Positions 5,525-36,390 of a stretch of DNA of 64,000 bases are shown piece after piece. This DNA comes from Candidatus Micrarchaeota archaeon (lineage in GTDB: Archaea > Micrarchaeota > Micrarchaeia > Anstonellales > Anstonellaceae). A program made the translations under genes and the position numbers. The stretch's first letter is position 1. Every line of letters starts with the position of its first letter. The DNA is taken from positions 230-64,229 of the forward strand of contig JAKAJC010000004.1 of NCBI GenBank assembly GCA_021814005.1, in the 5' to 3' direction. A model generated the notes under the pieces. That model was not told where the DNA came from. It searched no databases and worked only from the letters and a program-made list of their open reading frames with translations.

Positions 5525-5525
5525 C

Positions 5526-6314: not shown

Positions 6315-6353
6315 CTTTTACAAAAATTATCTAATTTCATCAGAATAATTCAA

Positions 6354-7082: not shown

Positions 7083-7258
7083 AAGAATATCCCTCCTAAA
7101 TGCTTGGCCCAAACAGGGGCCATGGAACTACTAATCAGGTTCCGTTTTTGTTTCGAGTGTACGAGAGATAGTGGGGGCCCTATCTATAATAATATATATG
7201 GTTGGGCGGGCCCGCGAAAGCAGCCGGTTTGGCTCAAGCGGCCGGTTTGGCCAAATAT

Positions 7259-8745: not shown

Positions 8746-8753
8746 TCACTCAC

Positions 8754-9464: not shown

Positions 9465-9614
9465 GAAGACACCTCGAAGATAATGCACTGCATAACCGAA
9501 GAAGATTTATAATTGGGGCGCAGCGGCCCCAGACTTGCGCGGGCGAGAAGCTAATTCTGTTTTTGATTTTTTTGTTTTCCGGCCTTTGCCACCTCTTTTC
9601 GCATTCGACGGGAG

Positions 9615-9623
9615 TTTTATAAA
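9615..9623 (+). promoter_or_regulatory. TATA box (TTTTATAAA) centred about 27 nt upstream of the G1 ATG, predicting a leaderless transcript
   Basis: AT-rich box in a divergent intergenic region shared with psmA. The spacing matches the archaeal TATA-to-TSS distance. Confidence 0.45.
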
Positions 9624-9645
9624 CGATATCAGTGTTGCATCGTCA

Positions 9646-14032: not shown

Positions 14033-14971
14033 ATGGCAGACGAACTCGAACCGCCCGTCAACCGCCTCGGCATGAGCGCGGCGGAATTCAGCGAACTGGC
14101 GATGCGCCTGCGCGCGAAGCAGCCGCAGCTGCGCGCCATTGCCCAGCGCCTGCTGGCCGCGCGGGTCGTTATCAATTCAGTCGAGGAGCCGCTGCGCGAC
14201 GCCACAAGCAAACTGCTGGAGGCCGGGGAAATCCCGCCGGCAAAACTCAAAGACCAGTTCCTGTCCATGCGCCGCGTCAAGGAGGATGCAGAGCGCACTG
14301 CCGACTTCTACAAAGCGGCCGGCAACGCCCTCTCGTCGCTCTTTCTCTCCCCGCTGCCGCAGCAAAAGCATGCGGACGCGGCCGGCAAGAGAATGATTGA
14401 GCTTGGAGACGAATGGGAAAAATGCCGCTCAACAAATAGGCCCCGCGCCGATTACATCCGCCTGCTGCTCCGCGATTTGAGTTACACGATATTCTCCCTG
14501 CCCCTCACCCCGCCCGCCGACGGCATGGGCGCGGACCAGCGGCGCGAACTGCTGATGAGCGAAGCGATGGGGCGCGCAAAAGTCCAGACTCTTCAAACGC
14601 AAATTCCATTCGACACCGGCAACGGCATCATCTACCGCTCGCTGGAGCAGGCGCAGGCCGAAGCCGCGCAGCAAGCCGGACAAAAACTGGCGCCAATGCC
14701 GGGCCAGCCTTCGCGCCGCCCGTTGTCGGCCGTGGTCTATTCCCCTCCTCCGTCCATCGCCTCCGCTCCCCGCTCCAGAGCAAGCGGCGCCGGCATAAAG
14801 CCGGACCGCGCGGAGATGGTGCGGCAGATGGCGGTGCAATCGGCCCGCACGCGGCGCATCACTCCCGCGATAAGGCCGATTCCCCCCGCCGGAAAAACAA
14901 AATCATCCAAATCAAAATCTTCAGCGCGAAAACCAGCGGCAAAGAAAAAGAAACCAGAGCGGGGTGCCTGA
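14033..14971 (+). CDS. Hypothetical soluble protein G2 (312 aa) with a Lys/Ser-rich basic C-terminal tail
   Basis: No TM segments. The C-terminus is KTKSSKSKSSARKPAAKKKKPERGA. It lies 3 nt upstream of the first membrane-module gene. Confidence 0.6.
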   Translation: MADELEPPVNRLGMSAAEFSELAMRLRAKQPQLRAIAQRLLAARVVINSVEEPLRDATSKLLEAGEIPPAKLKDQFLSMRRVKEDAERTADFYKAAGNALSSLFLSPLPQQKHADAAGKRMIELGDEWEKCRSTNRPRADYIRLLLRDLSYTIFSLPLTPPADGMGADQRRELLMSEAMGRAKVQTLQTQIPFDTGNGIIYRSLEQAQAEAAQQAGQKLAPMPGQPSRRPLSAVVYSPPPSIASAPRSRASGAGIKPDRAEMVRQMAVQSARTRRITPAIRPIPPAGKTKSSKSKSSARKPAAKKKKPERGA

Positions 14972-14974
14972 GCA

Positions 14975-16141
14975 ATGGTCGATTTTCTGGTGGCTGTCCC
15001 ATACGGCATAGCCATCGGCACCGGAATCGTCGCATTCGCCTACATGATAGGCTCGCTTCTGCAGTCGGACGCCATGAAATCGTGGAGCCGCCTTGAGCTT
15101 GGAGAGCTTGTGGTCTCGGCCATTCTTGTGGTGCTGGTTGCCGAGGCGCTCAGTCCGGCGGGGCAGGCCGGCATCATCAAGGCCTTCACCGGCGTGTCGA
15201 TGGGAATAGACGAGCTGCAGTCGAGGATGTATGTCTACATGGAGCTGCCGCTGGAAAAAGTGACAGAAGCCGTCGCAATAAGCAGCATGCATCTCAGCCG
15301 CATCATTTCCTACAATTACAACTACCAGCTGCCAATTCCCTACTTTTCGCCCACCGGCTCATCCAGCCCGGGCGCGGGAGCGGGGCCGCTGCAACTGTCG
15401 GTAATGATTGGCATGGATTCCACCGCTCTCAATCTCATGCTGGTCCATGCGGTCAAGCTGGTGTTTGTCTTCCTGATTTTCCTGCTGGGCACGTTCTTCA
15501 TGCCGCTCGGCATCATCCTGCGCTTCATCCCGCCTTTGCGGAAAATCGGAAGCATGCTGCTGGGCACGGGCCTGGCCGTCTATCTGGTGTTTCCCATCGC
15601 CATCTTCTGGGGCACGTCACTGCTGGCATTTTCGGTGAGCCCGCCCGATTACGACGCTGGCCGCCTGGTGCAGGACCCCGGCCGGCCTCCAACTTCCGGA
15701 TTCGTGTGCAGCACCGTCACGTCCGCCCTCTACAGCGCGGGCGAGCAGATTCCCGCATGGATAATCGGCGGAATAGTCTGCATCCCGACAATCATCACCG
15801 GCGGATACGTGGCCTGCGTCGGCACGCCCGGCTCGCCTCCGACATACGGGGGCGGAGTTGCCGGCATCGTTGCATACCTGATGTGGCTGTTCCAGTACGG
15901 CTTCCCCATCGCCACAACACAGTCGCTCAAGAGCGCGGGCGACACGCTGACGCCGGACTTCGTCTCCTCCGGCGTGTACCAGCCCATGGTGGGCTACCTT
16001 CTTCCATTGGCGGTGGTGCGAAATCTTGCGGTTCTTTTCATCGTAATCCTCGCGCTGGCGGCAACAATAATCCTGGCGCGCCAGTTCGCGCAGGTGCTGG
16101 GCGCGGAAGGGCAGTTCTACGGGCTGACAAAACTGGTGTAA
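14975..16141 (+). CDS. Polytopic membrane protein, paralogous module family member M1 (388 aa)
   Basis: Shares three motifs with five neighbours. The TM1 end is AYMIG, followed by KSWSRLEL. The central motif is FMPLGIILRFIPPLRKIGSMLLGTGLAVYLVFP. The C-terminal motif is YLLPLAVVRNL...LGAEGQFYGLTKLV. Confidence 0.7.
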   Translation: MVDFLVAVPYGIAIGTGIVAFAYMIGSLLQSDAMKSWSRLELGELVVSAILVVLVAEALSPAGQAGIIKAFTGVSMGIDELQSRMYVYMELPLEKVTEAVAISSMHLSRIISYNYNYQLPIPYFSPTGSSSPGAGAGPLQLSVMIGMDSTALNLMLVHAVKLVFVFLIFLLGTFFMPLGIILRFIPPLRKIGSMLLGTGLAVYLVFPIAIFWGTSLLAFSVSPPDYDAGRLVQDPGRPPTSGFVCSTVTSALYSAGEQIPAWIIGGIVCIPTIITGGYVACVGTPGSPPTYGGGVAGIVAYLMWLFQYGFPIATTQSLKSAGDTLTPDFVSSGVYQPMVGYLLPLAVVRNLAVLFIVILALAATIILARQFAQVLGAEGQFYGLTKLV

Positions 16142-16144
16142 TGG

Positions 16145-17197
16145 ATGGAAAACACGGCAGGAAAAATCGGTTCGGTTTCCCGTTTCGGGTTCGCCCCACT
16201 CGCAGTCCTCTCCCTGCTGTTTCTAGTCTCATCCTCTTCGGCCATCTTCGAGCCGCAGCTCTCGTGCTTCAACCAGACCTACAACATGGTGTATGATTTC
16301 GGCTCGCCAATCATCGCCGTCATTTTCATCATGGGCGTGCTCATCGCGATTGCGTACATGCTCGCGCAGCTTTTGGAAAAACCCGAGCTGTCGGTGTGGG
16401 CCAAGAGCGAAATAGTCACCCTGGGCTTTTCCATCCTTCTCATCGGCGCGGTGGTGGGCACGTTCGGACTTTCCTGCACAATCTCGAACTCGATGGTGTT
16501 TTCCGACTCGCGCGAATTCGCCAACAGCAGCGTGGTGGGGTCCGGCGCGCCGGCCAACGTTTTCACCAGCCCCGCGCAGAGGGCGGTGCAATATATCGAC
16601 AAGCTCACGCAGACCTACGGCCTGCGCCTCGCATCCGACCTCACCCGCCAGGCGGTGAACGACCAGCTCGGCGCGGTGGCATACGCGTACTGGTCCGTGC
16701 CGGTGCTTGACGGCGGCGGGCTTGCATACAAAGCCAACCAGCGCGCATGGGCGGCGCAGAAAGACATTCTCATCGACCTCTACATGCCGATGATGATTTC
16801 GCTGCAGGTGCAGAAATTCATGCTCAACCTGGCCATGGTCGGCGTGCTGAACATTCTTCTGCCGGCCGCGCTGCTTTTGCGCACGTTCTTCTTTTCGCGC
16901 GACATCGGCAACCTGCTCATCGCGCTCTCGTTTGCAATCTTCTTTGCCCTGCCGGTAGTCTATTCGTTCGGCTTCGAGGCGTCGGCAAATCTGCAGAAAC
17001 AGCTCTGTCCGTCGGGCTGCGACCCGCTCAATCCGTTCGGGCAGCTGAACATAGTCAAGGACCGCGTGGTTGGCGACAGCTATGCGAGAATCGGCTTCAT
17101 CTCCACACAAGCGATTTTAATCCCTAATCTCGCGCTGGTTGTGATGATAACCATGACCATGGCCCTAAACAAGGCCTTGAGAGGGTTCACAGGATGA
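16145..17197 (+). CDS. Polytopic membrane protein, paralogous module family member M2 (350 aa)
   Basis: The motifs are AYMLAQLLEKPELSVWAKSEI, LLPAALLLRTFFFSRDIGNLLIALSFAIFFALP and a C-terminal ILIPNLALVV...LRGFTG. It overlaps G5 by 4 nt (ATGA). Confidence 0.7.
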   Translation: MENTAGKIGSVSRFGFAPLAVLSLLFLVSSSSAIFEPQLSCFNQTYNMVYDFGSPIIAVIFIMGVLIAIAYMLAQLLEKPELSVWAKSEIVTLGFSILLIGAVVGTFGLSCTISNSMVFSDSREFANSSVVGSGAPANVFTSPAQRAVQYIDKLTQTYGLRLASDLTRQAVNDQLGAVAYAYWSVPVLDGGGLAYKANQRAWAAQKDILIDLYMPMMISLQVQKFMLNLAMVGVLNILLPAALLLRTFFFSRDIGNLLIALSFAIFFALPVVYSFGFEASANLQKQLCPSGCDPLNPFGQLNIVKDRVVGDSYARIGFISTQAILIPNLALVVMITMTMALNKALRGFTG

Positions 17198-20100
17198 GAA
17201 ATGAAAACGAAAACCCGGCGCGCCGCGAATCCGGCGTTTGCTTTGCGCCAGTCAATACGGCGCCAGCCGGCTTCCTGCCGCTGCACGCGCCGCATGTTTT
17301 CCTCTTCCTCCTCTGCCTTCTCTGTATCTCTCCAATAATTTTCTCCCAAAACACCACAATCCAGCCCGTGCTCACCGCCCAGAACGCGACTTTCGGGTTC
17401 GACAATTACGTGCGGGCAACCCTCGCGGCCGCCGCCCTCATGGCCGCAATCATGGCTCTGGTCTACATGGCAGGCATATTTTTCCAGAGCGAGGATGCCA
17501 AACAGCTGGCGCGCACTGAAATTCTGCAGACTGCTCTCAGCGTGATAATAGTCGCATTTCTTCTGGCCATTCTGCTCGGCGTCGACACCGGCCTTCGCCT
17601 TACCTCGGCCGAAATAGTCTCGCCCTGCGTGGGCCGCACCCTGCCCGCAAGCATCACGTCCGCCACTCTTCTCAACCAGTATGCATTCTGCTATGCGCAG
17701 GGCCTCAACGAAATGGCCATCGCGCAGGGCGACACCACAATCCGCAAGTCTGTCACATTTGCCAAGAAAGCGTATCGCATGGAAGGTTTCCAGACAGATT
17801 TGTGGTGGCTGCTCTACGGCGGCCTGACGCGCCGGCCCGATGCCAACCTGCGCCTTGACTCGGAAATCATGGGACAAGAGTTCACTCTTCTCACGTCATT
17901 CATGGTGAGCCTGCAGGGGCAGCTGGCATTTCTGCAATATATCGTGCCCGCGCTCGCGCCGGCGCTGCTTTTCCTTGGCGTCATCCTCCGCTCGCTTTTC
18001 TTCACCCGCAAACTTGGTGGCATGATGCTGGCAGCGGGAGCCGGATTATTGCTGGTGTGGCCGGCCACCTATCTGCTCTCATGGTTCACATTGCAGGTTG
18101 CGGTGTTCGGGCCGTCGGTGATGGGCGAGGAGCCGGGCTCGACCTGTCCAACCTCATGCAAAATCCTTCCCCCCGCCGGCTACAACATCTCAACAGCAAA
18201 TCCCGATTCATGGGGCAGTCCGCCTGCGGGTTCGCCTTATGCAACCGGCGCAATCAGCGCAAAGCAAATGGCAAGCGCCGGCGGCAGCTCGATTGCGCCT
18301 GACATCGGCGACGAGGCGGCCTGGAAACTGCGGGGCGTCCAGACCTGTTATCCGCAATACAATTACACTGAAGACAAGACAACCGGCACCCGCACATACA
18401 CTCTGCCGGCCGGCTATTCCAGCAGCGTGCCCGTGCAGTCTTCGGACAAGTGCCCCTCGGAGTGCCGCTTCCTTCCCACCCCGACGGATTTGAACTGCGA
18501 CCTGGCCGCCTGTGACAACATACCAATAGCCTGCAAGGCAATCAGGGCCATGAACCTTTCCACCTCGCCCCTGCCGAACCCGCCGGACAACTGCAACTCG
18601 TGCACCAGCTGCCCGGCGTTCTGCCGCACAATTTTGCCGCAGGTGAAATATGCAAACCCCGCAAACCCGGCCGCCGGAGTTGTGCCGACAACGAACGCGA
18701 ATTCATGCTCGGCCAATCCCGGCAATGCAACCCTATGCCCGCTCTACTGCCGCTCCTATTTGCACACGGACGCCAGCAACACGATTTCCTATTCCACTCC
18801 CGACTGCCAGGCCGCATGCCAAGCGACTCTTGACAACAAGAAAGACGCGGCAACGAGCCAGCCCGACTGCATGCTCGGCATTCCGGCCGCCATGATGGAG
18901 TGCAACACCCCCAACGTGTGCGGCCCTGCCATGAACCTTGAGGCTGCCATCGCCTCGGGCCGCACCGACCTCTGCCCGATTGAATGCCGCGTGAATTTCA
19001 ATTCATCTGGCACCGAGGACAGATACAAGGACCCGACATTCAACCAATACTGCACCGGCTCCGGCAAGTTCGGCACCGCGTGCGACACGCAATGCCCGAG
19101 CACGTGCAAGGTGAAAGCAAGCGCCGAGAACGCGGCGCTGCCAAATTCATTCTCGCTGGGCGTGCCCAACTCGTTCATAGTTTCGACCGGCGCAGGCAGT
19201 GTTCTTTGCGCGGCAGCCCCCACTTTCACAAACGGCCAGATGGACTCGAGCGTGAACGGGCAGTGCGCACGCTGCCCGCTCTCATGCCGCCTGCGCAACC
19301 CCTCCTCCATCCTCGACCTTGACAACAACCACAGCACTTACTTCTTCTCGCAGTCGCATTATGCCCTCACCTGCAATTACCGCAACACCACCCCAATCAT
19401 CCTGTACTCCGGCGCGTGCAGAAATTCCACATTCCCGCCCGGCTGGCTTGCGTTCGCTTCCGAAGATCCATCCGGCATTTCGTTGAGCCAAATCGGCCGC
19501 GGCCCGCCGGAATGCGCGCCAACCGCCCGCATTTACCTGCGCATGGATTCGTCAGACCCGCTCTGCCCGCTCTTTCTGGCCCCAATCCCGCCTTACATCA
19601 AGGACGGCACTCTTTCAAACGACCCTTCCAATTCCGCGGTGTCTGCCATCATTCCGCCAAACACCGACGTGTCGGCCGAATGCTCCACTCCCGATGCGCA
19701 GAAATACTGCCTCGGCAAAGACCCGCAGGGCCAGCCCTATTGCGACATTTCCTGCCAGCCAGACCGCGCCGTGAACGGGCCGTTCTACTGCCACTTGACC
19801 GACCTCTACAGCCCGCTCTCCAGCATTCCCGACAACACGCAGCGCTGCGGCGCCTGTTCGAGCCCGGCAGCAGACAATTCCAAGGGGCCGCAATGCCAAG
19901 TCATGCTGACAAGCGGCAGCACCCTCTATCTGCCCAAAGGCTGCGACCCGTCCTGCGCGCCCGGCTCGCTTGACACTGCGACCGGAATAATCCTCAACCC
20001 CGACACAGACCCCAAGTCGAGGGCTTCATGCGGCGGCTTCTGCTATCCGCGCCTGCCCATCCCCTCGTGCAGCGCATATGCCCCCGCCAGCACAACCAAT

Positions 20101-21423
20101 CCCAACGGCCGCGCGTTCGCCTCCTGTGCCGCCTGCCCAACCGACTGCCGCTATGATTATCTCACTGCCGCGGGCATCAGGCGCCCAAACAGCCAGGACA
20201 ACTACTGCGGCTGGAGCTTCACCGCGCCAACCGCATGCTTTTCCATCACGCTGGAGCGCCTGCGCGGCAGCGACATCCCAAGCGTGAACAACACCCGCTA
20301 TTATTCGTGCACGCAGACCGAAGCAGGCCAATACCACTGGGTGCGCACAAGCAGCGGCGTTGACAACAGAAGCGACAGCGGCTGCAACGCGGCCTGGTAT
20401 CCGATTGGCCACTTCACCAACCAAACCGTTGCCAACCTCGCGTGCGGCCCAGGCACTTTCAGCAACACCACGAGCGATGTCTACTCATGCACGCCGGTCC
20501 ACAAGTATCCGGCCCTCGACAGCCTTGTCACCTCTTCGGGCGGGCCTTCCGATTACCGCGAATGCGGAGACATAAGCGTCAACGGCCAGAATCCGAACAA
20601 CAACCTCTGCGGCGCGCGCACGTTCGGCGGCGCAAGCGTCCAGCTGTGCAAGAACGACCGCGCGGCAACAGATTCGTGCTTTGCCCACTTCAACGCGCTC
20701 GCGGTTGCCTGCCTGCCGATTACCGGCGTGGTGAATGATTACACAGACCCCGCCAACAATCCGACCAAGGCGGAGGAGAGCTGCCAGAACTGCCCGCTCT
20801 TCTGCCGCATAGACAACGGCGGCCAGATATGCTCGCCGTGGTCTGCCGGCGGCGAGCCTCCCAAATGTGATTTCCCCAACCAGTGCGACCGGCGCACTGC
20901 TCAGGGCAGCGGCTACTGCGGCATCCCGTCATCAGCATTCAAAATTGGCCAGGGCTGCGCGAATTACACCGGCGGCTCCGGCGTGGGCTGCCCCGCCCGC
21001 TGCCGCGTTTCACTGCCGTCCGGCAACGTGCCATACGGCTGCTCGGGCGGTGAAATCGGCAACGCATGCTCGCCCGGCAATCTTGATTCGGCATGCACCG
21101 CCACCCCGCCCGACAATCCGTGCGCAGGCTGCGGCGAATGCGACACCGACTGCCGCTCCACGCCTTATGTGCGGCAGAACTGCGACGACCTCTGCCTGCC
21201 GACAGACTTTGCCACCGGAGCCTCGCCCATCACGCCCAAGGACCTTTTGATGTCGTGGGAAGGCGCGTCGGGCAACCCCGACTGGCGCTCATTGGGCTCT
21301 TTGGGCATCGCCGCTTTCCTGCTGCCGATTCTCAACATCATACTCACTCTTGCATTCATCCGCAGCCTCTCGCCGGTGCTGGGCGGCGACATCGAGATTC
21401 CGGGAATACTCAAGGTGCTGTGA
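17194..21423 (+). CDS. Giant Cys-rich membrane glycoprotein G5 (1409 aa). An N-terminal paralogous membrane module is fused to a roughly 1000-aa Cys-rich ectodomain, followed by a C-terminal TM.
   Basis: The motifs are VYMAGIFFQSEDAKQLARTEI and LAPALLFLGVILRSLFFTRKLGGMMLAAG. The ectodomain has at least 13 copies of C-[PD]-x-x-C-[RKQ], for example CPSECRF, CPAFCRT, CPLYCRS, CPIECRV, CPLSCRL, CPTDCRY, CPLFCRI, CPARCRV and CDTDCRS. It also has many N-x-S/T sequons. The C-terminus is AFLLPILNIILTLAFIRSLSPVLGGDIEIPGILKVL. Confidence 0.75.
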   Translation: MRNENENPARRESGVCFAPVNTAPAGFLPLHAPHVFLFLLCLLCISPIIFSQNTTIQPVLTAQNATFGFDNYVRATLAAAALMAAIMALVYMAGIFFQSEDAKQLARTEILQTALSVIIVAFLLAILLGVDTGLRLTSAEIVSPCVGRTLPASITSATLLNQYAFCYAQGLNEMAIAQGDTTIRKSVTFAKKAYRMEGFQTDLWWLLYGGLTRRPDANLRLDSEIMGQEFTLLTSFMVSLQGQLAFLQYIVPALAPALLFLGVILRSLFFTRKLGGMMLAAGAGLLLVWPATYLLSWFTLQVAVFGPSVMGEEPGSTCPTSCKILPPAGYNISTANPDSWGSPPAGSPYATGAISAKQMASAGGSSIAPDIGDEAAWKLRGVQTCYPQYNYTEDKTTGTRTYTLPAGYSSSVPVQSSDKCPSECRFLPTPTDLNCDLAACDNIPIACKAIRAMNLSTSPLPNPPDNCNSCTSCPAFCRTILPQVKYANPANPAAGVVPTTNANSCSANPGNATLCPLYCRSYLHTDASNTISYSTPDCQAACQATLDNKKDAATSQPDCMLGIPAAMMECNTPNVCGPAMNLEAAIASGRTDLCPIECRVNFNSSGTEDRYKDPTFNQYCTGSGKFGTACDTQCPSTCKVKASAENAALPNSFSLGVPNSFIVSTGAGSVLCAAAPTFTNGQMDSSVNGQCARCPLSCRLRNPSSILDLDNNHSTYFFSQSHYALTCNYRNTTPIILYSGACRNSTFPPGWLAFASEDPSGISLSQIGRGPPECAPTARIYLRMDSSDPLCPLFLAPIPPYIKDGTLSNDPSNSAVSAIIPPNTDVSAECSTPDAQKYCLGKDPQGQPYCDISCQPDRAVNGPFYCHLTDLYSPLSSIPDNTQRCGACSSPAADNSKGPQCQVMLTSGSTLYLPKGCDPSCAPGSLDTATGIILNPDTDPKSRASCGGFCYPRLPIPSCSAYAPASTTNPNGRAFASCAACPTDCRYDYLTAAGIRRPNSQDNYCGWSFTAPTACFSITLERLRGSDIPSVNNTRYYSCTQTEAGQYHWVRTSSGVDNRSDSGCNAAWYPIGHFTNQTVANLACGPGTFSNTTSDVYSCTPVHKYPALDSLVTSSGGPSDYRECGDISVNGQNPNNNLCGARTFGGASVQLCKNDRAATDSCFAHFNALAVACLPITGVVNDYTDPANNPTKAEESCQNCPLFCRIDNGGQICSPWSAGGEPPKCDFPNQCDRRTAQGSGYCGIPSSAFKIGQGCANYTGGSGVGCPARCRVSLPSGNVPYGCSGGEIGNACSPGNLDSACTATPPDNPCAGCGECDTDCRSTPYVRQNCDDLCLPTDFATGASPITPKDLLMSWEGASGNPDWRSLGSLGIAAFLLPILNIILTLAFIRSLSPVLGGDIEIPGILKVL

Positions 21424-21428
21424 GAAAA

Positions 21429-22718
21429 ATGGCGCGAGCTCAAAAAACAAAAACAAAAAATGAAAAAGAAAACGGCTGCTCCCGTTTCGCGAGCATTGGC
21501 TTCGCGCGCGCCAGCCCTGCGCGCGCCAGCCCCGCGTTTTCTTCGGCGCGCTCGAGCGCGCTGCGGCATTTTGTTTTCTTGTTTATTACGGCCTCTCTGT
21601 TCCTTATCCCATCAATTCACGCGGCCGCCGCATGGCAGCCGGCAGTTTTCGCAGCCGTGCTCATCTCCGTCTCCGTGCTGGCAGTCGTTTACATGATTGT
21701 AACCGTGCTGAAATGGGACAGGTTCAAGGGCATCATAAAAGACGAGCTCGGCCAGACGTTCATCACATTTCTTCTGGTGGTCCTGCTTGTTGCAGGCATG
21801 TCCGAAGGCGAAACCCAAGCGTCGAAACTTGTGTGCGGCATTTCCGGCATGCCAGACTCCGGCTTCTGCCCGACTCCCGCGCGCGACACCATGATTTTCT
21901 GCAAAACTGCCGGAAGCAATCCCACCACATGCCCCATCACCGGCAGCCAGCCGCTCAACAACTGGGCCCTCTCGCTCAACACCAACGCGCAGTCTCTCCT
22001 GAGCACCAACCTGCTCGCCAAGGCGCTGGAGTTCAACCAAAAACTCGGCTATGTGAGCTCGGTGTCGGGCTTCTGCAACATGCTTGGCGTGGGCTTCTCC
22101 ATCGCCGGCTGCTCCACTTACGGCGTGCTGCGCGGACCCGTCGGCCAGCTGCTCAACGCAATCGGCATCGGATTGATGGATTTGCAGGCAGAGCGGATTC
22201 TGCTCCAGCTCAACACTGCCGGTTTCACGCTGAGCCTGCTTTTGCCGCTTGGCATCCTGCTCCGCGCGCTGCACTGGACCAGAAAGGCGGGCGGCACGCT
22301 CATCGCCCTCGCACTCTCGCTCTACTTCATTTTCCCCGCGTCGCTTTTGCTTGGGCAGGCGATGGCAGACCAGTTCATCAAGACGGGCAGCCCGTATCAG
22401 GCCCTCGCAGCCGGCCCGACGTTTCCGGCAATGAGCGGCAGCTACAATCCGCTCGACACATCTACCGTCGAATGCAATCCATTTGACCCAAGCACCGGCA
22501 AGATGGTCAACACCATGAACAGCTTCCTCACGCGCAGTCCTTCCGACCCCGCGAACGTCAAGAATCCATCCACCATCGACCAGATTCTTTTCGTTGTGAT
22601 GATACGCAACCTGATGATAACCATCGTGGCGCTCACAGTCACCCTCTCCGCCACGCGCGTGCTGGGCCACGCCCTTGGCGCGGAAATCGACGTGTGGGGC
22701 ATTGCGAGGCTGAGCTAA
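21429..22718 (+). CDS. Polytopic membrane protein, paralogous module family member M4 (430 aa)
   Basis: Start taken at MARAQKTK; the track's 21093 start overlaps G5 and is unlikely. The motifs are AVVYMIVTVLKWDRFKGIIKDEL, LLPLGILLRALHWTRKAGGTLIALALSLYFIFP and a C-terminal LGAEIDVWGIARLS. Confidence 0.7.
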   Translation: MARAQKTKTKNEKENGCSRFASIGFARASPARASPAFSSARSSALRHFVFLFITASLFLIPSIHAAAAWQPAVFAAVLISVSVLAVVYMIVTVLKWDRFKGIIKDELGQTFITFLLVVLLVAGMSEGETQASKLVCGISGMPDSGFCPTPARDTMIFCKTAGSNPTTCPITGSQPLNNWALSLNTNAQSLLSTNLLAKALEFNQKLGYVSSVSGFCNMLGVGFSIAGCSTYGVLRGPVGQLLNAIGIGLMDLQAERILLQLNTAGFTLSLLLPLGILLRALHWTRKAGGTLIALALSLYFIFPASLLLGQAMADQFIKTGSPYQALAAGPTFPAMSGSYNPLDTSTVECNPFDPSTGKMVNTMNSFLTRSPSDPANVKNPSTIDQILFVVMIRNLMITIVALTVTLSATRVLGHALGAEIDVWGIARLS

Positions 22719-25700
22719 ATGGAGAAAAAGAACCGGCCGCATTCACCGAAGTTCTCATCGCCATCGCCCATGCCGCACCTTGCGCTGTTATTTCTCTTGG
22801 CCGCAGTTCTGCTCGCTCCATTTGTTTCGGCAGACATAACCGCAACAATTGATTACAACAGCGCCCCTCCCCCGCCCGCCTCGCCCTGGCTCACCATAAC
22901 TCCGATGACTGTGGGCGTGAGCGCCGACTGCGGCACCATACCGCCCTGCGTGCCGCCGTTCAGAATCAATTTCCAGTTCGTCTGCGGCGGCACCCCTGTG
23001 CAGGAAACATTCACAAACGTCCCGCCGGCCTCCCGAACAGCATACACCTATTATCCAAACTCCGACCCCGCATGCCGCGAGCCGACGCCGCTGAATTCCA
23101 TAATCACAATCACCGACACTACTGGACAATCATTTTTCACGCAAAGTTTCCCCGTAGCTCTGGCAAATGGTACAGACACCACTCCGCCGGGCATCTCGTG
23201 GAATCCCGTGCCGCCGCCAGAATATGATGCGGGCGCAACCATCAGCTTCGGCTTCACAGTCACCGACCCTGACGACAACACCAACGCGATTCCGACATTG
23301 TATCCAAATGTCGCCACGGCCGAGGTGGAAATCACCGACTTGGGAAACGGCCAGGTCTATGGGCCATATGACATGGGCCCGTTCCCTCCACCGAACGGCT
23401 GGAGCACCCAAGTCTTTCATATAGAAGGCACCCCCAGCGCCGACCACACTGTTGAAATCAACTGCAGCCGCCTCAACTGCGTCGGAGATTTGCAAATAAA
23501 AGTCAGGTCCCACGACCCTGCGGGCCTTGGCATTACCCTGCCGCCAATGATTGTGCGCAGGCGCGGCGGCCTGGTTCTTCCCTCTCCCATATTGGGCATC
23601 ATCCCGCCCGCACCCGTCTGCCCCAACGCGGCCATCCGCGCCATGGCAAACCAGCCGTCTGGCTCCCCTGCAATAGACAGCCATGAATACAGCTGGTCCA
23701 TCACTCCAAATCCTCCGGTGCAGATAGATACTGTGCCCGACACCGCCAAAACGGGCGCCACTTCAGACACATTCGACTGCGCGGCGCGCAACTGCCAGAA
23801 CGGCCAGACCGTGTCAGTAAGCGTGCTCGCCATCGCCGGCGCCCAGCGCTCCCCTCCCAACGCCACCCTGATTCTCGTCGACGGCAGCAGCCTTGACTGC
23901 AGAATGCCGGCAGCCCCGCTTCTCACCAACCAGACAATATCCATCTCGCCCTTCAACGCGATAGTGCTGGCAAACCAGAGCAACAACGATCCGCGAGCCG
24001 TGCTCCACCGCTATGTCTGGACCATGGCCGACGGCACAGTCATCGAATCCCCGCTCATGCCCCTGCCAATCCAAAATGTCACATCAGCTCCCGTGCCCTG
24101 CGCCGCGAATCCAAACCTCTACTGCCCGTCGGGAGGAACCGTCCTTCTCACGGTCTATTCATACACTGCGCAGAATGTGCAATCCCAGCCAGCATTTATC
24201 TCCATCTTAATTCCGGCGCGCTCAGCCCTCAATCCGCCGGTGGTTGTCACCAAGCCCTTCAGCCCGTATGACAACGACACCATCGTGCTTGTTGCAAACA
24301 ACCAGAACGAAGAGGTGGACCGGCACCAGTACCGCCTGCTCATCATCAATGCGGACGGCACTATATACCAAGAAATCGATGCTCCAATCTACGACACTGT
24401 TTCCACAACCGCGGCAGACAAACACACCACCACATCCAAGCCATTCACCTGCACGACAAGCGTATGCAGGGGCCGCTTTGCCAACATAACCGCCCGCGCC
24501 TACAATTCCCTTGGCTGGTCAGACTGGTCTCCCTGGCTGAGCGTCCCATTCGGCCCGCCGCCGATTCCTGCGCCAATACTTGTGCGCATCGACCCGATTC
24601 CACCCGGCAATTCGATGCTGTCAGACATCAATTCCGGACTTGGCGCGCTCCTCAACACCTCGCTTGCCTACAGCTTCACAATAACCCCGCCCGCCGGCCA
24701 GCCGCCGTTCAACGACTATATTCCAACCCTCACAGTCAACGGCGCAGACGCGCCGGTTTCATCCAGCCGCTCGGGCAACAATCTCATCATCACTCTGGCC
24801 TGCACCCCGTCATCATGTCCGAACGGCTCAATCCTCACATACAAGGTAATCGGCGTGCAGGCGGGAGCGAATTCCACTCCCCTGTATTTCTCGCTTGTAG
24901 TTCCGCAGGCGAGCGGCATGCCCGCGCAGGTGGGCGTCATCTGTTCCGGCGCCGAACTGCAAAGATGGCTGCAGGTGATGGCCATCGGCATGATGGCCCT
25001 TCTCGCCCTTATCGCGCTCGTCTATATGATTGGCGAGGCGCTGCACCACCCGCAGCTTTTGGAATGGTCCAAATCAGAAATCGGGCACGTGGGCATGACC
25101 ATCATCCTCTTCTTCCTCATCGTATGGCTGATTCAGTTCCAGTGCAACCTGACGGTGGGCGAATTCCTCAACTGGTCTGGCTCGTCAAACCCCCTCTACT
25201 CGTCAGGCATGACGCTTTCACAGGCAGGTCTCAAATCGCTTGAATGGGGCATCACCCAGACGCGGCTCACCCTCGTGGCCATGCGCTACGAGATGGGAGT
25301 GCTCAACATGCGGGCCACCTATTCCTCCTACTCCACCCAGTTCCCCGGAATGGGCGGCAACGGCTACAGCTTCATGCCCTTCTCGGGCGATTACACCCTG
25401 CTCGGCTCGTTCGGCATGCTCACCAACCTCAACTCCACTTTCCTGCTCGCGCTCCTCTTCCAGCTATTCTCGCTGTTCTTCTTTTCCTCTTCCAGCGGGC
25501 TGTTCATATTCCTCGTGCCGGTCGGCCTCATACTGCGCTCGGTTCCGTTCATACGCGGATTCGGCGGCTCGCTGGTGGCCATCGGCATCGGCTTCTACAT
25601 ATTCTATCCGATTCTGCTTGCCTTCACCGGCCTTCTGCTCGCGCCGCTCTACTCGGGCATTGACTCCACCAGCCAGCTCGGCATCGCCGACGCCTCGCAG

Positions 25701-25991
25701 CTGGAGGCAAAAGAGCTTGCGATTCACACGCCATTCAGCAGCACCGGCCTTGCTGGCGACAACATTTTCAGCTACAATCCGGGCGACCCGTATCCGGGGC
25801 CGCTGATGCCCACCGCCGGCAAGGACTCGCCGCCGAAGCTGGGAATATATTTCAATCTAACTGCCCTGAATTTCCTGCGCGCCATCCTCATTCCGACCGC
25901 AGGGCTGATAGTGACCGTGTCATTTGTGCGCGACCTCGCGGCCATTTTCGGCGAAGAGGTGGACGCGTCGAAACTGATTGCCATGATTTAG
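22719..25991 (+). CDS. Giant surface glycoprotein G7 (1090 aa). It has a signal peptide, a roughly 700-aa sequon-rich ectodomain and a C-terminal paralogous membrane module.
   Basis: The signal peptide is LALLFLLAAVLLAPFVSADI. There are many N-x-S/T sites (NGT, NCS, NQT, NAT, NVT, NDT, NIT, NTS, NGS, NST). The module motifs are LVYMIGEALHHPQLLEWSKSEI, LVPVGLILRSVPFIRGFGGSLVAIGIGFYIFYP and a C-terminal ILIPTAGLIV...FGEEVDASKLIAMI. Its ATG abuts the stop of the upstream gene. Confidence 0.75.
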   Translation: MEKKNRPHSPKFSSPSPMPHLALLFLLAAVLLAPFVSADITATIDYNSAPPPPASPWLTITPMTVGVSADCGTIPPCVPPFRINFQFVCGGTPVQETFTNVPPASRTAYTYYPNSDPACREPTPLNSIITITDTTGQSFFTQSFPVALANGTDTTPPGISWNPVPPPEYDAGATISFGFTVTDPDDNTNAIPTLYPNVATAEVEITDLGNGQVYGPYDMGPFPPPNGWSTQVFHIEGTPSADHTVEINCSRLNCVGDLQIKVRSHDPAGLGITLPPMIVRRRGGLVLPSPILGIIPPAPVCPNAAIRAMANQPSGSPAIDSHEYSWSITPNPPVQIDTVPDTAKTGATSDTFDCAARNCQNGQTVSVSVLAIAGAQRSPPNATLILVDGSSLDCRMPAAPLLTNQTISISPFNAIVLANQSNNDPRAVLHRYVWTMADGTVIESPLMPLPIQNVTSAPVPCAANPNLYCPSGGTVLLTVYSYTAQNVQSQPAFISILIPARSALNPPVVVTKPFSPYDNDTIVLVANNQNEEVDRHQYRLLIINADGTIYQEIDAPIYDTVSTTAADKHTTTSKPFTCTTSVCRGRFANITARAYNSLGWSDWSPWLSVPFGPPPIPAPILVRIDPIPPGNSMLSDINSGLGALLNTSLAYSFTITPPAGQPPFNDYIPTLTVNGADAPVSSSRSGNNLIITLACTPSSCPNGSILTYKVIGVQAGANSTPLYFSLVVPQASGMPAQVGVICSGAELQRWLQVMAIGMMALLALIALVYMIGEALHHPQLLEWSKSEIGHVGMTIILFFLIVWLIQFQCNLTVGEFLNWSGSSNPLYSSGMTLSQAGLKSLEWGITQTRLTLVAMRYEMGVLNMRATYSSYSTQFPGMGGNGYSFMPFSGDYTLLGSFGMLTNLNSTFLLALLFQLFSLFFFSSSSGLFIFLVPVGLILRSVPFIRGFGGSLVAIGIGFYIFYPILLAFTGLLLAPLYSGIDSTSQLGIADASQLEAKELAIHTPFSSTGLAGDNIFSYNPGDPYPGPLMPTAGKDSPPKLGIYFNLTALNFLRAILIPTAGLIVTVSFVRDLAAIFGEEVDASKLIAMI

Positions 25992-26004
25992 GAGAGAACC
26001 TGCC

Positions 26005-27198
26005 ATGACAAAACAAAAAATAAAATCAAAAACAAATTCGGCCCCCATGTCGGGATTGCTTTCGGCCAGCCGCGCACGTTTCACCCTCTCCTCCTTCTTC
26101 CTCACATTCTTCTTCATCCTCTTCCTCTCGTCAATTCTCGCGGCTCTCGACCCCAACGCCCTCACATGGAGCAATCCCGACAAGCTCATGGTCCGCTCGG
26201 CCGGCTACTTCCAGCCAACCTCGCCCAACAGCTGGTACCGCATGGTCATTCCCGCTCTGGCCATCTGCATTTTTGCCAACACTCTTGTCTATGTGTTCGG
26301 GCGCGTTGCGAACGCGCCGCACGTGGTCCAGTTCGCGAAATCAGAATTCTACCAGGTCACGGCCTCGGCAGTCATGATATTCATTTTGGTGGCCGCGGGC
26401 GCGGAATCATTCCGCTATATTCAGGACAGCGGCCTGCTGCCCGCAGGCACCACGACTTTGTGCTACGGACAGGCGATGTCAGTTTGGGATGTGGGGCCGT
26501 TCGGCATAATCCGCTGCAAGCTGCAGGAGAAAATCGACTATGTTGAAGACCTCTACAATCAGGCATGGACTCTCAACGCCAATGTCGAGCCTCTCACCAC
26601 CTATTCGCTCTACCTCTTCAACATACCCGTCTATGTGTGGGACTGGAACACCGCCCTGCATTCGCAGATGGAGCAGGCCCACTTCATAGCCAACAAGCTC
26701 ACGCCAATCGGCATCAGCCTTCACGCGCAATTCATGTTTGCAGAATATCTTGCCCAGAACATGCTCAACGTATTTTTGCCGGTCGGCCTGCTGCTGCGCA
26801 TCTTCCCCATCCTGCGCGGCATCGGCTCTCTCATGGTGGCCATCTCAATCGGCTTCTTCTTCGTGTTCCCCATCGCATACATTTTGATGGACCCGACAAC
26901 CGTGCGGCCCGACCCTGCCACCCTCATACCGGCGGTCAATGACAACAAGGCCAACGTGTGCTACACTTCGTTCAGCGGCATGGTGACCACCTACACCCAA
27001 ATCGCCCCGAAGGTGGCGCAAAAGGCGGAGACGGCCGACATCACCCAAATAGGCTCGGAACTTGCCAAACTGCAGATAGAGGCGTTCTTCTATCCGCTTG
27101 CCGCGCTTGCCACCGCGCTGGTGTTCATCTCCATCGCCACGCCAATCTTGGGCGGCGACTCGGGGGAAATCATGCACTTCCTCACAAAGGTGATATGA
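26005..27198 (+). CDS. Polytopic membrane protein, paralogous module family member M6 (397 aa)
   Basis: The motifs are LVYVFGRVANAPHVVQFAKSEF, FLPVGLLLRIFPILRGIGSLMVAISIGFFFVFP and a C-terminal FFYPLAALATALVF...LGGDSGEIMHFLTKVI. Confidence 0.7.
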   Translation: MTKQKIKSKTNSAPMSGLLSASRARFTLSSFFLTFFFILFLSSILAALDPNALTWSNPDKLMVRSAGYFQPTSPNSWYRMVIPALAICIFANTLVYVFGRVANAPHVVQFAKSEFYQVTASAVMIFILVAAGAESFRYIQDSGLLPAGTTTLCYGQAMSVWDVGPFGIIRCKLQEKIDYVEDLYNQAWTLNANVEPLTTYSLYLFNIPVYVWDWNTALHSQMEQAHFIANKLTPIGISLHAQFMFAEYLAQNMLNVFLPVGLLLRIFPILRGIGSLMVAISIGFFFVFPIAYILMDPTTVRPDPATLIPAVNDNKANVCYTSFSGMVTTYTQIAPKVAQKAETADITQIGSELAKLQIEAFFYPLAALATALVFISIATPILGGDSGEIMHFLTKVI

Positions 27199-27199
27199 G

Positions 27200-30100
27200 T
27201 TGGGAAAAGAAAAAGAAATTGAGAGCATGCGCGCACAGGCGCCGCACCCGTCGCGGGAATCGGACAGTGGAACAAATATCAATCTGTTGTTTTTGGCCGC
27301 CATCTCCCTCTCCCTTCTCTCCCTCATTTTCCTCTCGGGCTGCGTGCAGCCCAACTCCAACCTCTCCTACGGCGCGTGCTGCATGCAGAGCAATTCGTTC
27401 TATACCTGCCAGGTGCGCACCGACGCCAACGGCACGCAGCAGCGGGATTCGAACGGCAACCTTCTCATCGACGGCTGCGGCCCCTGCATTGCCGTTGCCA
27501 AGAACGGCACGGTTTACAACTCGTCCGGCCCAACCGACGCCGCGCTCTGCACAAACAACTGCAACTTCAAGCAGTCCAACTGCACCAATTTCGACGGCAA
27601 AAACACCTGCTATCTTGTGGACAAGAACATGCAGACAACCAACGAATCGGTGGGCCCGATTTGCATGGCCGCAACCGACCCGTGCGTGCAGAACAACTGC
27701 ACTGCCATGGTTTACGGCAAGCCGCTTCCATCCCCCAAGCGCAGCATCAACTCCCAGTCGGTGCAGCAGTCCAACAACCCGGACGGCAACGCGTTCAAGC
27801 AGGACGCGGCCAACCAGAAGACCGGCCTTGTGGGCCGCATCATGCAGTTCAGCCAGTTCAACACCCGCCTTGCCCGCCTCTTGAAAAGTCCGGACTGGTC
27901 TGTGAACACTTTGCGCCTCGGCCTCCAAGGACAATTTTCCGACTACGACCGCGCGCGTTTCTATCTTCCGCCCTCGGATTACTTCTGCCCGCAAAACAAC
28001 CCCAACGCAATAGTTGACCGCTACACCGCCTATCTGGACGGGTTGAGCGCGCTCCCGCCTTTCCGCTCATACTACACTGTCAATTACGCAACAACCTGCA
28101 GCCCCGGCCACAAAAAACCCCCGTATGGCGGCTGGTATTCAACATGCACCTGCACTCCCTCCAGCCCTCCCGCCCCGCCGTGCGGCAAGGATTTCATGGG
28201 TTCTTCTGCCCTTGATGCAGAAGACATGTGCAACTCCTCCTGCACGAATTTCAGCCGTGTATACAGCACGCCCAATTTCAAGAATCCGCTCAGCCTCTGC
28301 CGCCTCGAGCCGGCATCAGGCGCCAATCTCTCCTACTTCTACTGCGATGTCAATCCCGGGCTCAAGTTCACCATCGCCGACCCGTCCGACCAGCTGCGCG
28401 CATATCTTTCCTGCCAGAAAGCATGCAGTTACAGCCAATACCGCACATGCAGCCAGAATCAGGACCTTCTGACCTACAACGCCAATCTCCACCCCAATAT
28501 TTATTCGCCCTCCAATTGGCCTCCACAAACACCTCCGGCCGGCTCAATCCAGCCGTTCATCGACATCGACCAATATGCCAAGGCGCTTGCGAACGCTTAT
28601 CCGACTCCGACCGGGCCGGCCTGGTGCCCCGCGCTTGTGGCGCTAAGACCCGACCCTGCCAAGGAGGCGGCGATGAAGAATGACCCGCGCAATTACTACA
28701 AATGCCTTCTGCCCGAACCCAACAGTGCCGGCGCCAACCAGACCATAGCCGCCTACGGCATCACGGCCGACCAGTACAACACCACCTATATGAGCGAGGG
28801 CATCAAGCCCGGGCCTGCCGGCGGCAAGGTGTTTGAGTGCACCGGCGGCGGCGACTGCCTCTCCGGCATCTGCGACAAATCCACCTATTCGCGCACCTCA
28901 TGCTTCCTCAAAGACGGCTCTGCGGTTGACTGCGCCTGCCGCTGGGTAACCAATTGCAAGCTCGCGTACCAATGCTCGGGTTACGAAGCCCGCAGCATCA
29001 GAAAAGACCAGTGCGAGGTGAACCTCAACAACTGCCAGGAGGCACAGGGAGGCTCGGACTATCCGGTGCTGATGTGCGAGTACCGCATCAATCCGCTCAC
29101 TCCCCAGACCGCCAATCCGCCCATCCATGGCCTGCGCACCCCCTACGCCTCCAGTGGCAACTATGTTTTCAACGACGGCCGCAACGGCTACGGCATTCTG
29201 CATATCGAGGAATTCAACAAATACATCGACGCTGCGGTCGCGGACGCCGAGCTTGCCACGGTGCAAAGGCCCTCCACTTCGCTCGAATTGTGCCCAAGCC
29301 GCGTGCGCCGGCCATGCGCCTCTTCAACAGAACAGGGCTGCTATGTGAGGAACACCAATCCTCCCGACGTGTCGGTGCTCTGGCAGCATGACGGCGACAG
29401 CGACGTATACCAGAACATACCGGCCTACACGCCCACCTACGACGCCTGCCCAAGCGGCGGCACGCTGTCCAATGTCTCTGGCTGGAAAGACACTCCCAAG
29501 GCATTTGGCGACTATTTGCGCGACAGTTCCTACCCCTCGCGCGAAACATTTGCTCTCGTGCCCACGCAGCAGGCGGTGGCCGGGCCGGGAGGCGCGCATT
29601 TCATCACCACCAGCCGCTATGTGACATGGCAGAATGACAACTGCTATTTCTCGCTCTCCGGCTACACTCTGAGCGGCTCAAAATGTCCGGCAGACCAGGT
29701 CCGCTTCCCGCTCTTTCAGGCCTGCAACATGAGCGTTAATTCCGAATATTTCAACAAAGCCGCAGGCAGCAGGAGCTATCCTTATCAGGACGCGTATCAG
29801 GCCGAAATATACAATGCCCGCGGGCAGGATGCGGCCGGCTCCGCGTTTGATGTGAAATATGTGGACGGCTATTCCTACGACCCAAACAACAACGACACCC
29901 TTTATTCCTACGGCGGCTCTGACCCCTACCGCATAGACAAGACGTGGGCAATCTACAGTTTCGGCGCCTGCCAGGTCCAGCCAAGCACCCCATCCGCTCC
30001 GGCGGTGTCGGGCAAGAGCCCGCCGCCGGTGGTGTTCAGCTACGGCATGTGCCGCTCGTGCGGCACCCTGCTGTCCATGGCTTACCAGCCGGTGAAGGAT

Positions 30101-36263: not shown

Positions 36264-36320
36264 CTGTATTTTCAGCCCCCTTCTTGAGGCTAAGGCTGAG
36301 CTTTTGATATTCTATTTTTT

Positions 36321-36390
36321 TGCTGTTTTGCTGTTGCCTATTTTTGCTATTCTGTTACTGCCTATTGTTCGCTGTTCTGCTTTGCCTGCT
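36321..36390. repeat. Pyrimidine-rich low-complexity tract of degenerate short repeats (TGCTGTT, TGCCTATT, TGCTATT, CTGTTCTGC) in the promoter region of the Lon-like ATPase gene
   Basis: Read directly from the sequence. The track's 36320 start would translate this tract as Leu/Phe/Cys repeats, which is implausible. Confidence 0.5.

Follow-up and report, generated by a model that had tools for sequence, protein, structure and literature searches.

What might six neighbouring genes on the plus strand of a Micrarchaeota chromosome build when each contributes one copy of the same membrane module of about 340 residues? The genes (g1 to g6, positions 14975-27198) lie in a 64-kb stretch of DNA, referred to here as the window, from a member of this DPANN phylum. 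DPANN archaea depend on imported lipids and metabolites, and to our knowledge no machinery for host attachment or for lipid or metabolite uptake has been identified in Micrarchaeota so far. A literature search returned no prior description of the cluster.

Six paralogues of one membrane module

A preliminary description of the locus, made from the sequence alone, had placed the same membrane module in six tandem genes starting at 14975, 16145, 17194, 21429, 22719 and 26005, and ORF calls in the window confirmed all six frames (Table 1). The open frame of g4 extends back to 21093, and gene callers start the gene at 21429. With spacers of 3, 3, -4, 5, 0, 13 and 1 nt, the cluster forms a tight operon, as suits co-expressed subunits. 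Within the loop between transmembrane helices 4 and 5 (TM4 and TM5), g1 has additional helices; in g3, whose whole protein contains 85 cysteines and 15 N-glycosylation sequons, TM4 is separated from TM5 by a Cys-rich insert of about 1000 residues that is predicted to be extracellular, and the module is recovered as two stretches of the family HMM (columns 3-268 and 271-343). The initial proposal that every module comes with a signal-like segment and a sequon-bearing stretch holds in part: the former is missing from g1, and g1, g4 and g6 contain no sequons.

Table 1. Positions in the window of the array genes and of the other features discussed.
Feature	Position	Strand	Length (aa)	Description
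Upstream giant	9535-13956	+	1473	likely true start ATG 9646
312-aa gene	14033-14971	+	312	soluble protein, lysine-rich tail
g1	14975-16141	+	388	module-only paralogue, without signal peptide
g2	16145-17197	+	350	minimal paralogue: signal peptide and module
g3	17194-21423	+	1409	split module, Cys-rich insert
g3 module, TM1-TM4	17299-18183			
g3 module, TM5 and tail	21208-21417			
g4	21429-22718	+	429	signal peptide and module
g5	22719-25991	+	1090	signal peptide, ectodomain of ~700 aa, then module
g5 module	24951-25988		345	C-terminal part of g5
g6	26005-27198	+	397	signal peptide and module
Downstream giant	27200-31864	+	1554	75 Cys, 25 sequons; directly after g6
HerA-like gene	38962-40506			

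The paralogues share only 17-23% pairwise identity, which would be in keeping with the view that the six genes are unrelated and owe their common motifs to TM-helix composition. Against this, BLASTP between pairs of the six gave colinear matches over 200-360 residues (E 1e-9 to 1e-4), and the four motifs of the preliminary description were all recovered, their strings colinear in a MAFFT alignment: x-Y-M-x-G at the end of the first TM, (W/F)-(A/S)-(K/R)-(S/T)-E-(I/L) leading into the next, L-P-x-G-L-L-L-R-x-x-P-x-x-R-x-x-G-G-x-L-x-A in a central TM, and a C-terminal TM with hhhP...R.L...(L/F)G(A/G)(E/D) and a short tail. In a leave-out test, an HMM built from 26 g6 orthologues alone and run against the window ORFs of at least 150 aa together with reversed decoys detected g2 (1e-14), g3 (1e-14), g5 (4e-12), g4 (3e-11) and g1 (5e-9), and matched neither the other 79 window ORFs of at least 150 aa nor any decoy up to E=10. 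Because this g6-only HMM finds the five paralogues and no decoy, the similarity of the modules reflects homology rather than TM composition. An exhaustive search extended the family to 3,039 representatives at 50% identity (E≤1e-3; 2,322 at E≤1e-10), and polar residues are invariant across its members. We conclude that g1 to g6 are six true paralogues; the compositional explanation, which the preliminary description had itself raised, has a negligible probability and, judged from these sequence comparisons, counts as already refuted by the family search, the leave-out HMM and the invariant residues.

Based on hydropathy and signal peptides, the module is predicted to have five hydrophobic helices with its N-terminus outside, a large extracytoplasmic region after TM2 and a cytoplasmic C-terminus. 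Cysteines and sequons fall in loops predicted to be outside, and the density of lysine plus arginine, 0.05-0.06 per residue in outside loops, rises to about 0.14 in the inside ones. Among 185 family members the HMM columns W24, E61, Q64, G206, R210, R216, G219, P234 and G332 are invariant, and conservation peaks in TM3, TM4 and the cytoplasmic loop between them (consensus L-R-x-F-x-F-T-R-G-x-G-G). AF2 models of g6 (pLDDT 76, pTM 0.67) and g1 (pLDDT 77.9) consist of about seven long helices.

Searches for a known family and the likeness to VirB6

None of the six module proteins matched a Pfam, NCBIfam or PDB sequence profile, which bears out the earlier statement that the module fits no sequence-defined family. 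The T2SSF domain of the PilC/FlaJ/TadC platform likewise found no match in Pfam or NCBIfam, and no PilB/FlaI ATPase neighbours the genes. When 94 family members were compared to Pfam, only weak single-member matches to LptF_LptG and MacB_PCD were obtained (E 0.03-0.1), which are at noise level for ABC permeases (FtsX/MacB, LptF/G), and none of the loci examined encodes an ABC ATPase.

The preliminary description had also set aside VirB6/TrbL, a dismissal that finds only partial support. PF04610 (TrbL/VirB6) matched neither the six proteins nor the 94 family members at E≤1; hhalign gave a probability of 1.3% to a TrwI-family profile and of 0.3%, with a score equal to that of the reversed control, to a wider one made from 13 plasmid VirB6 proteins and TrwI relatives; reciprocal hmmsearch between the module family and VirB6 stayed at decoy level; and VirB6 was not among the matches of the PDB profile search. 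The best local hhalign alignment sets L-P-L-G-x-x-L-R-x-F-x-F-T-R over the VirB6 G-P-x-F-I...L-F-x-x-T loop, and we do not count it as evidence because the reversed control scores as well. Membership of VirB6 by sequence is thus rejected as unsupported. TrwI/VirB6 was nevertheless the top structural match for the g6 model in two independent structure-comparison programs; for the g1 model it ranked only 18th, within the noise band of long-helix proteins, so that with this rank and with profiles at decoy level the module is not confidently placed in any described family.

The predicted topology matches that published for VirB6, which is N-out/C-in with about five TM helices and a large extracytoplasmic loop (PMC6120205). 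VirB6 is also built of about seven long helices (PMC9259494), and its conserved domain lies, as does that of the module, at TM3, the cytoplasmic loop and TM4 (PMC7648143). Unlike VirB6/TrbL, which has an invariant Trp in this central loop (PMC7648143), the module family has a Phe majority (61%) at the corresponding column, and Trp occurs only in g4. On balance the module bears a faint likeness to the VirB6 base of a bacterial type IV secretion system (T4SS) and may be related to it. VirB6 of plasmid R388 (TrwI; PDB 7o3v, 8rt9) is the homopentameric inner-membrane base of the T4SS stalk and carries the tip protein VirB5, an arrangement that resembles the role proposed below for the modules. The six obligatory, heterologous paralogues differ from such a homopentamer, as do the Cys-rich inserts of about 1000 aa and the archaeal, chromosomal setting of a cluster kept across a phylum.

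VirB6 operons also differ from the cluster in their neighbours. In the window and in flanks of about 10 kb at five related loci (L001, L003, L019, L020 and L021), we found no gene for VirB4, VirB2, VirB3 or VirB8, no VirB5 gene near the cluster, and no ATPase within or adjoining it. The only HerA/FtsK-class ATPase of the window is a repair-type HerA that scores far below any VirB4 model cut-off; we rejected it as the missing VirB4, given its type, its position 7 kb downstream behind housekeeping genes and its lack of synteny elsewhere.

Fixed gene order across Micrarchaeota and flanking genes

Using g6 orthologues alone as seeds, a search for related loci that sampled only Micrarchaeota found the cluster, strictly syntenic, in every lineage sampled. 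The genes fall into six separate orthologous groups, one per array position, and each gene's best match is the window paralogue at the same position (e.g. 250-870 versus 40-80 bits). Order and domain architecture are kept in 12 distinct loci, including Anstonellaceae at about 35% identity; wherever a locus is long enough for the array to be seen, the order is fixed, spacers are 0-13 nt or overlaps, and g1 orthologues hold the first position in eight of the loci searched. The best-conserved paralogue is g6, with 42-75% identity over 25 aligned orthologues and about 35% in Anstonellaceae. The g3 insert aligns over nearly its full length in 13 loci (28-51% identity), two further loci align with shorter parts of it, and g5 orthologues range from 437 to 1115 aa with a poorly conserved ectodomain of variable length. 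From these comparisons the six genes appear to be ancient, subfunctionalised copies.

The preliminary description had pointed to adjoining giant Cys-rich genes, and wherever the Micrarchaeota loci extend far enough, an orthologous Cys-rich predicted lipoprotein of about 1,300-1,600 residues follows g6. In the window a lipobox-like L-S-G-C (aa 45-48) closes its signal peptide, and [LVAI]-x-G-C and PNxNL motifs occur in 10 of the 10 orthologues read; the orthologues are alignable at 24-46% identity overall, five of them over nearly full length. We take this downstream giant to be a predicted surface lipoprotein and a probable conserved core component. On the other side of the array, the upstream giant has a signal/anchor (aa 46-64), a Cys-containing ectodomain of about 190 aa, a TM (aa 250-268) and then a Cys-poor region of about 1200 aa that is presumably cytoplasmic. 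Its residues ~117-728 are conserved in two of three other loci reaching upstream of g1, the third having only a 150-aa gene in its place, so it is probably an accessory, partly conserved component. It matched nothing in Pfam, NCBIfam or PDB, and a Walker A motif is absent from both this protein and the 312-aa protein, which by tblastn had no match in 15 related loci and is probably lineage-specific. A phmmer search of PDB sequences with the three giant proteins gave no match. We rejected the giants as S-layer protein, the Micrarchaeum S-layer protein being a different, Cys-poor protein with PF05123 encoded by a separate gene (bioRxiv 10.1101/2021.04.28.441871).

A candidate surface machine and its alternatives

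With its surface-exposed Cys-rich glycoproteins and its unannotated membrane module, present as six ancient paralogues, the operon is a concrete, testable candidate for the machinery of host attachment and of lipid and metabolite acquisition in Micrarchaeota. Our tentative reading, to which we give a probability of roughly 0.4, is that g1 to g6 form a hetero-oligomeric VirB6-like membrane base anchoring giant glycosylated ectodomains, as a surface or host-contact apparatus. Each of the six proteins would have its own, non-redundant place in a cytoplasmic-membrane machine specific to Micrarchaeota and would supply one five-TM module on the VirB6 blueprint with its N-terminus outside. A short cytoplasmic loop would join TM1 to TM2; TM2, one further helix and TM3 would project as a helical stalk beyond the membrane; the invariant cytoplasmic loop L-R-x5-R-x-x-G-G would join TM3 to TM4; and TM5, preceded by a variable outside loop, would lead into a short cytoplasmic tail, L-G-G-E. 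The modules may assemble next to one another as a hetero-oligomeric base, perhaps ring-shaped, for which the fixed order and tight spacing of the six orthologous groups give indirect support; the invariant E/R/R/G residues would then be its inter-subunit or cytoplasmic-vestibule surface. The outward loops would bear large glycosylated masses rich in Cys: the insert of g3, the N-domain of g5 and the 1554-aa giant with its lipid anchor. Together these might build a surface structure that spans the S-layer and serves for contact or exchange with a host cell.

A more speculative version, in our estimate unlikely, sees in the cluster a new kind of archaeal cell-envelope nanomachine: six different subunits, VirB6-like or convergently similar, would form a ring that works without an ATPase and nucleates a giant disulfide-rich glycoprotein spike (g3 insert, g5 ectodomain and 1554-aa lipoprotein) through the S-layer, as a structure for docking and exchange of material of Micrarchaeota with Thermoplasmatales or Sulfolobales hosts. 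Such a ring could stem from an archaeal T4SS-stalk branch predating VirB4 coupling, or be an independent invention. If the VirB6 link is true, Rickettsiales and Patescibacteria would be joined by a third group of ultrasmall symbionts with T4SS-derived architecture, and a VirB6 platform would operate without an adjacent VirB4 gene; if it is not real, the modules represent a large new membrane-protein family. Numbering over 3,000 clusters at 50% identity, the family deserves its own database model.

The likeness to VirB6 might be that of any generic helical bundle, the family being lineage-specific and a membrane anchor or scaffold for envelope proteins (e.g. to support the S-layer, space the periplasm or maintain cell shape) with no role in transport or host contact. 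We regard this as somewhat unlikely, since both structure programs rank VirB6 first for g6, the topology and the place of the conserved block agree with those of VirB6, a passive anchor would not be expected to keep charged residues invariant on its cytoplasmic face, and the S-layer protein is a different PF05123 gene (bioRxiv 10.1101/2021.04.28.441871). The six might also be a multi-subunit permease or channel for host nutrients or lipids, FtsX/MacB-like or LptF/G-like and driven by an ABC ATPase encoded elsewhere or by membrane potential. Such a role would suit polytopic proteins that carry a large extracytoplasmic domain amid their TM helices and conserve charged residues where the membrane begins, the weak LptF_LptG and MacB_PCD matches, and the need of DPANN archaea for imported lipids and metabolites; we find it improbable. 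A bona fide but highly diverged T4SS or DNA-transfer system, in which the six VirB6 homologues would make up the translocon and the genes of its VirB4-like ATPase and pilin would lie at other sites of the genome, agrees with the structural and topological resemblance to VirB6. We hold it to be improbable, as the sequence membership tests fail, VirB4, VirB2 and VirB3 are missing from the window and the surveyed flanks, and the sole HerA/FtsK-class ATPase is HerA-type.

Three comparable systems are points in favour of that alternative. The T4SS of Patescibacteria (CPR), reported to be essential for epibiotic growth (PMC12102498), is likewise a conserved chromosomal apparatus of ultrasmall episymbionts, of monoderm type and including VirB6. 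The CPR-DPANN parallel is an ecological analogy: standard VirB4, VirB6, VirB3 and VirB2 HMMs recognise the CPR system but not the Micrarchaeota cluster, which has no ATPase. In the Ced/Ted DNA-import systems, the link of the VirB6-like channel proteins CedA/TedA to VirB6 is barely detectable by sequence and visible only by sensitive profile or structure comparison (PMC9905601). Like the module, CedA/TedA are archaeal polytopic membrane proteins. By description they differ from it: they have about seven TM helices, occur in single copy in Thermoproteota and have a VirB4-like ATPase and a VirB2-like pilin encoded alongside. No CedB-like neighbour was seen beside the cluster, and the sole match of the NF053655 CedD model was the distant HerA-type gene, with a score well under the cut-off.

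In its organisation the array resembles the rvh T4SS of Rickettsiales, a precedent for the membrane base proposed above and likewise found in obligately host-dependent organisms with reduced genomes, in which 4-5 VirB6 paralogues (VirB6-1 to -4, RvhB6a-e) are tandem and co-transcribed, some reach thousands of residues by surface-exposed extensions, synteny is order-wide, and T4SS genes are split over distant loci (PMC7648143). Here too, tandem paralogues, some of them enlarged (g3 and g5), are kept in a conserved order (12 loci). The likeness is one of organisation only: the TrbL/VirB6 domain, with its invariant Trp, can be recognised in the Rickettsiales copies, which share an operon with virB3 and virB4, whereas the module domain fails the VirB6 sequence tests; the Rickettsiales extensions are terminal repeats, whereas the Cys-rich insert here lies in the TM4-TM5 loop.

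Paralogy and predicted topology of the membrane modules

The six ORFs of the preliminary description (g1 to g6) were all found at their positions, and every motif string quoted for them is present and colinear. BLASTP among g1-g6 yields colinear alignments (E 1e-9 to 1e-4), and an HMM trained on 26 g6 orthologues alone (alignment A4), with the other paralogues left out, detects all five of these (E 1e-14 to 5e-9). Of the 79 other window ORFs with at least 150 aa the same HMM matches none, and reversed decoys likewise gave no hit up to E=10; chance and TM-helix composition, against which the motifs had to be weighed, are therefore excluded and a compositional artefact is refuted. Near-invariant columns in 185 family members are W24, E61, Q64, G206, R210, R216, G219, P234 and G332.

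The common protein plan starts with a signal peptide and a variable ectodomain (~700 aa in g5); the signal-like start ascribed to each module is present in g2-g6 and missing only from g1. TM1 ends in Y-M-x-G and is followed by a 12-16-residue loop, TM2 is entered via K-S-E-I and leads into a loop of 110-130 residues, TM3 ends in L-P-x-G-x-x-L-R before a 7-10-residue loop (R-x-x-G-G), TM4 carries an invariant Pro and precedes a variable loop (40 to ~1000 aa; at its longest in g3, as a Cys-rich insert), and TM5 is followed by an L-G-G-E tail that closes the protein. Cys residues and N-glycosylation sequons fall in the long loops, where K+R density is 0.05-0.06 per residue; the short loops and the tail are richer in K+R (~0.14). 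Because signal peptides, Cys residues and sequons, and charge bias agree, the module is predicted from sequence to be N-out and C-in with five TM helices, which would place the four motifs first recognized and all invariant charged residues at the cytoplasmic membrane boundary.

Family extent, gene order and flanking proteins

A profile search with HMMER, run exhaustively over 1.84 billion representatives, retrieved 3,039 proteins at E≤1e-3, of which 2,322 reach E≤1e-10. Pfam and NCBIfam scans of the modules gave no match, in line with the initial failure to assign them, neither database holds a model of the family, and the few source names available are all 'hypothetical protein'; the family is unannotated. 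Named relatives are all Candidatus Micrarchaeota/Micrarchaeia, Anstonellales included, except for three, labelled 'Parvarchaeota', 'Acidobacteria' and simply 'bacterium'; of these, the 'Acidobacteria bacterium 37-65-4' and 'bacterium' members (P0139, P0160) probably stem from mis-binned Micrarchaeota contigs. In A5, another family alignment, one member has a strong DNA_pol3_alpha Pfam match (E 2e-42) and is probably a fused or mis-called ORF.

Related Micrarchaeota loci scanned with the module HMM, Anstonellaceae at ~35% identity among them, show the same array with order and architecture unchanged. Each of their genes has as its best match, by a wide margin, the window paralogue of equal position, so the paralogues form six old orthologous groups predating the split of the sampled Micrarchaeota lineages. 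In the window, successive genes of the cluster lie 3, 3, −4, 5, 0, 13 and 1 nt apart. The g3 insert is conserved across loci (near-full-length alignment in 13), and the g5 ectodomain varies in both length and sequence.

The Cys-rich 1554-aa giant downstream is conserved across related loci. Its signal peptide ends in a lipobox-like L-S-G-C (aa 45-48) followed by V-Q-P-N-S-N-L, and [LVAI]-x-G-C plus P-N-x-N-L recur in 10 of 10 giant orthologues inspected (the window, L001, L003, L005, L007, L009, L011, L014, L015 and L016), with 63-83 Cys each; this signature suggests a giant archaeal lipoprotein. The upstream giant (1473 aa) is only partially conserved and the 312-aa protein between it and g1 is not conserved among related loci. 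The TTG starts of the giants at 9535 and 27200 are probably too far upstream; ATG 9646 (aa 38, right before the signal anchor) and ATG 27227 are more plausible.

Resemblance to VirB6 and possible roles

AlphaFold2 models of g6 (pLDDT 76, pTM 0.67) and g1 (pLDDT 78, pTM 0.63) are long-helix bundles whose TM helices run well past the membrane; in g6 the outside loop comprises a 38-residue TM2 helix, a 34-residue helix and a 49-residue TM3 helix, capped by two β-hairpins. A Foldseek search of the whole PDB with the g6 model ranked TrwI/VirB6, the membrane base protein of the T4SS stalk of plasmid R388, first (probability 0.87; runner-up 0.18). For the g1 model, VirB6 ranks only 18th. VirB6 consists of seven long helices, of which five are hydrophobic, and assembles as a pentamer into a membrane base bearing the VirB5 tip (PMC9259494); its N-terminus is periplasmic and its C-terminus cytoplasmic, and it has about five TM helices with one large loop on the periplasmic side (PMC6120205). 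Its conservation peaks in the central TM helices and in the cytoplasmic loop that joins TM3 to TM4 (PMC7648143). In helix make-up, predicted topology and conserved region the module follows the VirB6 blueprint, and the models suggest, short of proof, a resemblance in fold. Rickettsiales, with 4-5 tandem VirB6 paralogues bearing giant surface-exposed extensions (PMC7648143), offer a precedent for such an array.

Because sequence and neighbourhood tests fail, we do not assign the module to the VirB6 family. No family member scanned matches PF04610; hhalign of the 185-sequence family profile gave a probability of 1.3% against a TrwI-family profile and 0.3% against a broader VirB6 profile (13 plasmid genes), where a reversed control scored equally; reciprocal hmmsearch stayed at decoy level; and the loop Trp conserved in VirB6 is not conserved in the module family. 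No VirB4, VirB2, VirB3 or VirB8 gene lies near the cluster, and neither here nor in any related locus examined is there an ATPase gene inside or next to the cluster. The HerA-like gene was rejected as the cluster ATPase, being of repair type and not syntenic with the cluster. A true but diverged T4SS, its ATPase encoded elsewhere, is distinctly unlikely, and a permease very unlikely.

The best-supported reading (probability roughly 0.4) is a six-paralogue hetero-oligomeric membrane base carrying a large glycosylated surface structure. The six non-redundant paralogues would assemble in the cytoplasmic membrane, their invariant cytoplasmic-face residues making subunit contacts or a vestibule, and the surface structure would combine the giant lipoprotein with helical stalks and Cys-rich ectodomains. 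In a host-dependent, S-layer-covered organism, such an apparatus would most plausibly serve host contact or exchange. We consider a lineage-specific envelope scaffold unrelated to VirB6 rather unlikely. The literature searched contains no description of the cluster, which also goes unmentioned in the cryo-ET and proteomic work on cultured Micrarchaeota. We see it as a variant of the VirB6-type membrane platform, with a substantial chance of its being an entirely new kind of machine.

Chromosomal setting

The window is part of an archaeal chromosome, in which a proteasome-exosome superoperon lies just upstream of the cluster and divergent to it.

Features of the window, with the form of cluster genes in related loci
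Feature	Coordinates	Strand	Remarks
ORF, 1375 aa	50-4177	-	4 Cys; hydrophobic segments ~aa 929-1001; no Pfam, NCBIfam or module-HMM match
Superoperon	4736-9488	-	
Rrp42	4736-5524	-	superoperon
Rrp41	5526-6314	-	superoperon
Rrp4	6354-7112	-	superoperon
SBDS	7259-7969	-	superoperon
ORF, 259 aa	7966-8745		inside superoperon; no family match
PsmA (proteasome-alpha)	8754-9488	-	superoperon
Upstream giant	9535-13956	+	
312-aa protein	14033-14971	+	
g1-g6 array	14975-27198	+	
g1		+	related loci: ~390 aa, no signal peptide
g2		+	related loci: ~325 aa, minimal form
g3		+	related loci: 1,300-1,600 aa, module split in every case
g4		+	related loci: 370-430 aa
g5		+	related loci: 437-1,115 aa, N-terminal ectodomain variable
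g6		+	related loci: ~380-440 aa, conservation highest
Downstream giant	27200-31864	+	related loci: ~1,300-1,600 aa, Cys-rich
LonB-related AAA+ protein	36320-37924		TIGR00764 at 347 bits, below cut-off
ORF, 378 aa	37948-39084	-	overlaps HerA-type gene; no family
HerA-type ATPase	38962-40506		DUF87 + HAS barrel; no recognisable NurA gene adjacent
ORF, 504 aa	46992-48506		no Pfam or NCBIfam match
ORF, 357 aa	56911-57984		no Pfam or NCBIfam match
ORF, 232 aa	62669-63367		no Pfam match
NMD3, DUF2070, GatD/GatE, Kae1, thermosome subunit			downstream of cluster

Linkage of superoperon and cluster also occurs in the related loci L001, L003 and L020, in either orientation. The 504-, 357- and 232-aa ORFs are exceptions in a neighbourhood of well-annotated housekeeping genes. 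All 2-kb bins of the window have a negative GC skew, which is strongest (-0.14 to -0.20) across 18-30 kb, the g3-to-giant portion of the cluster, where it may reflect the coding-strand composition of Cys/Pro/Thr/Ser-rich genes.
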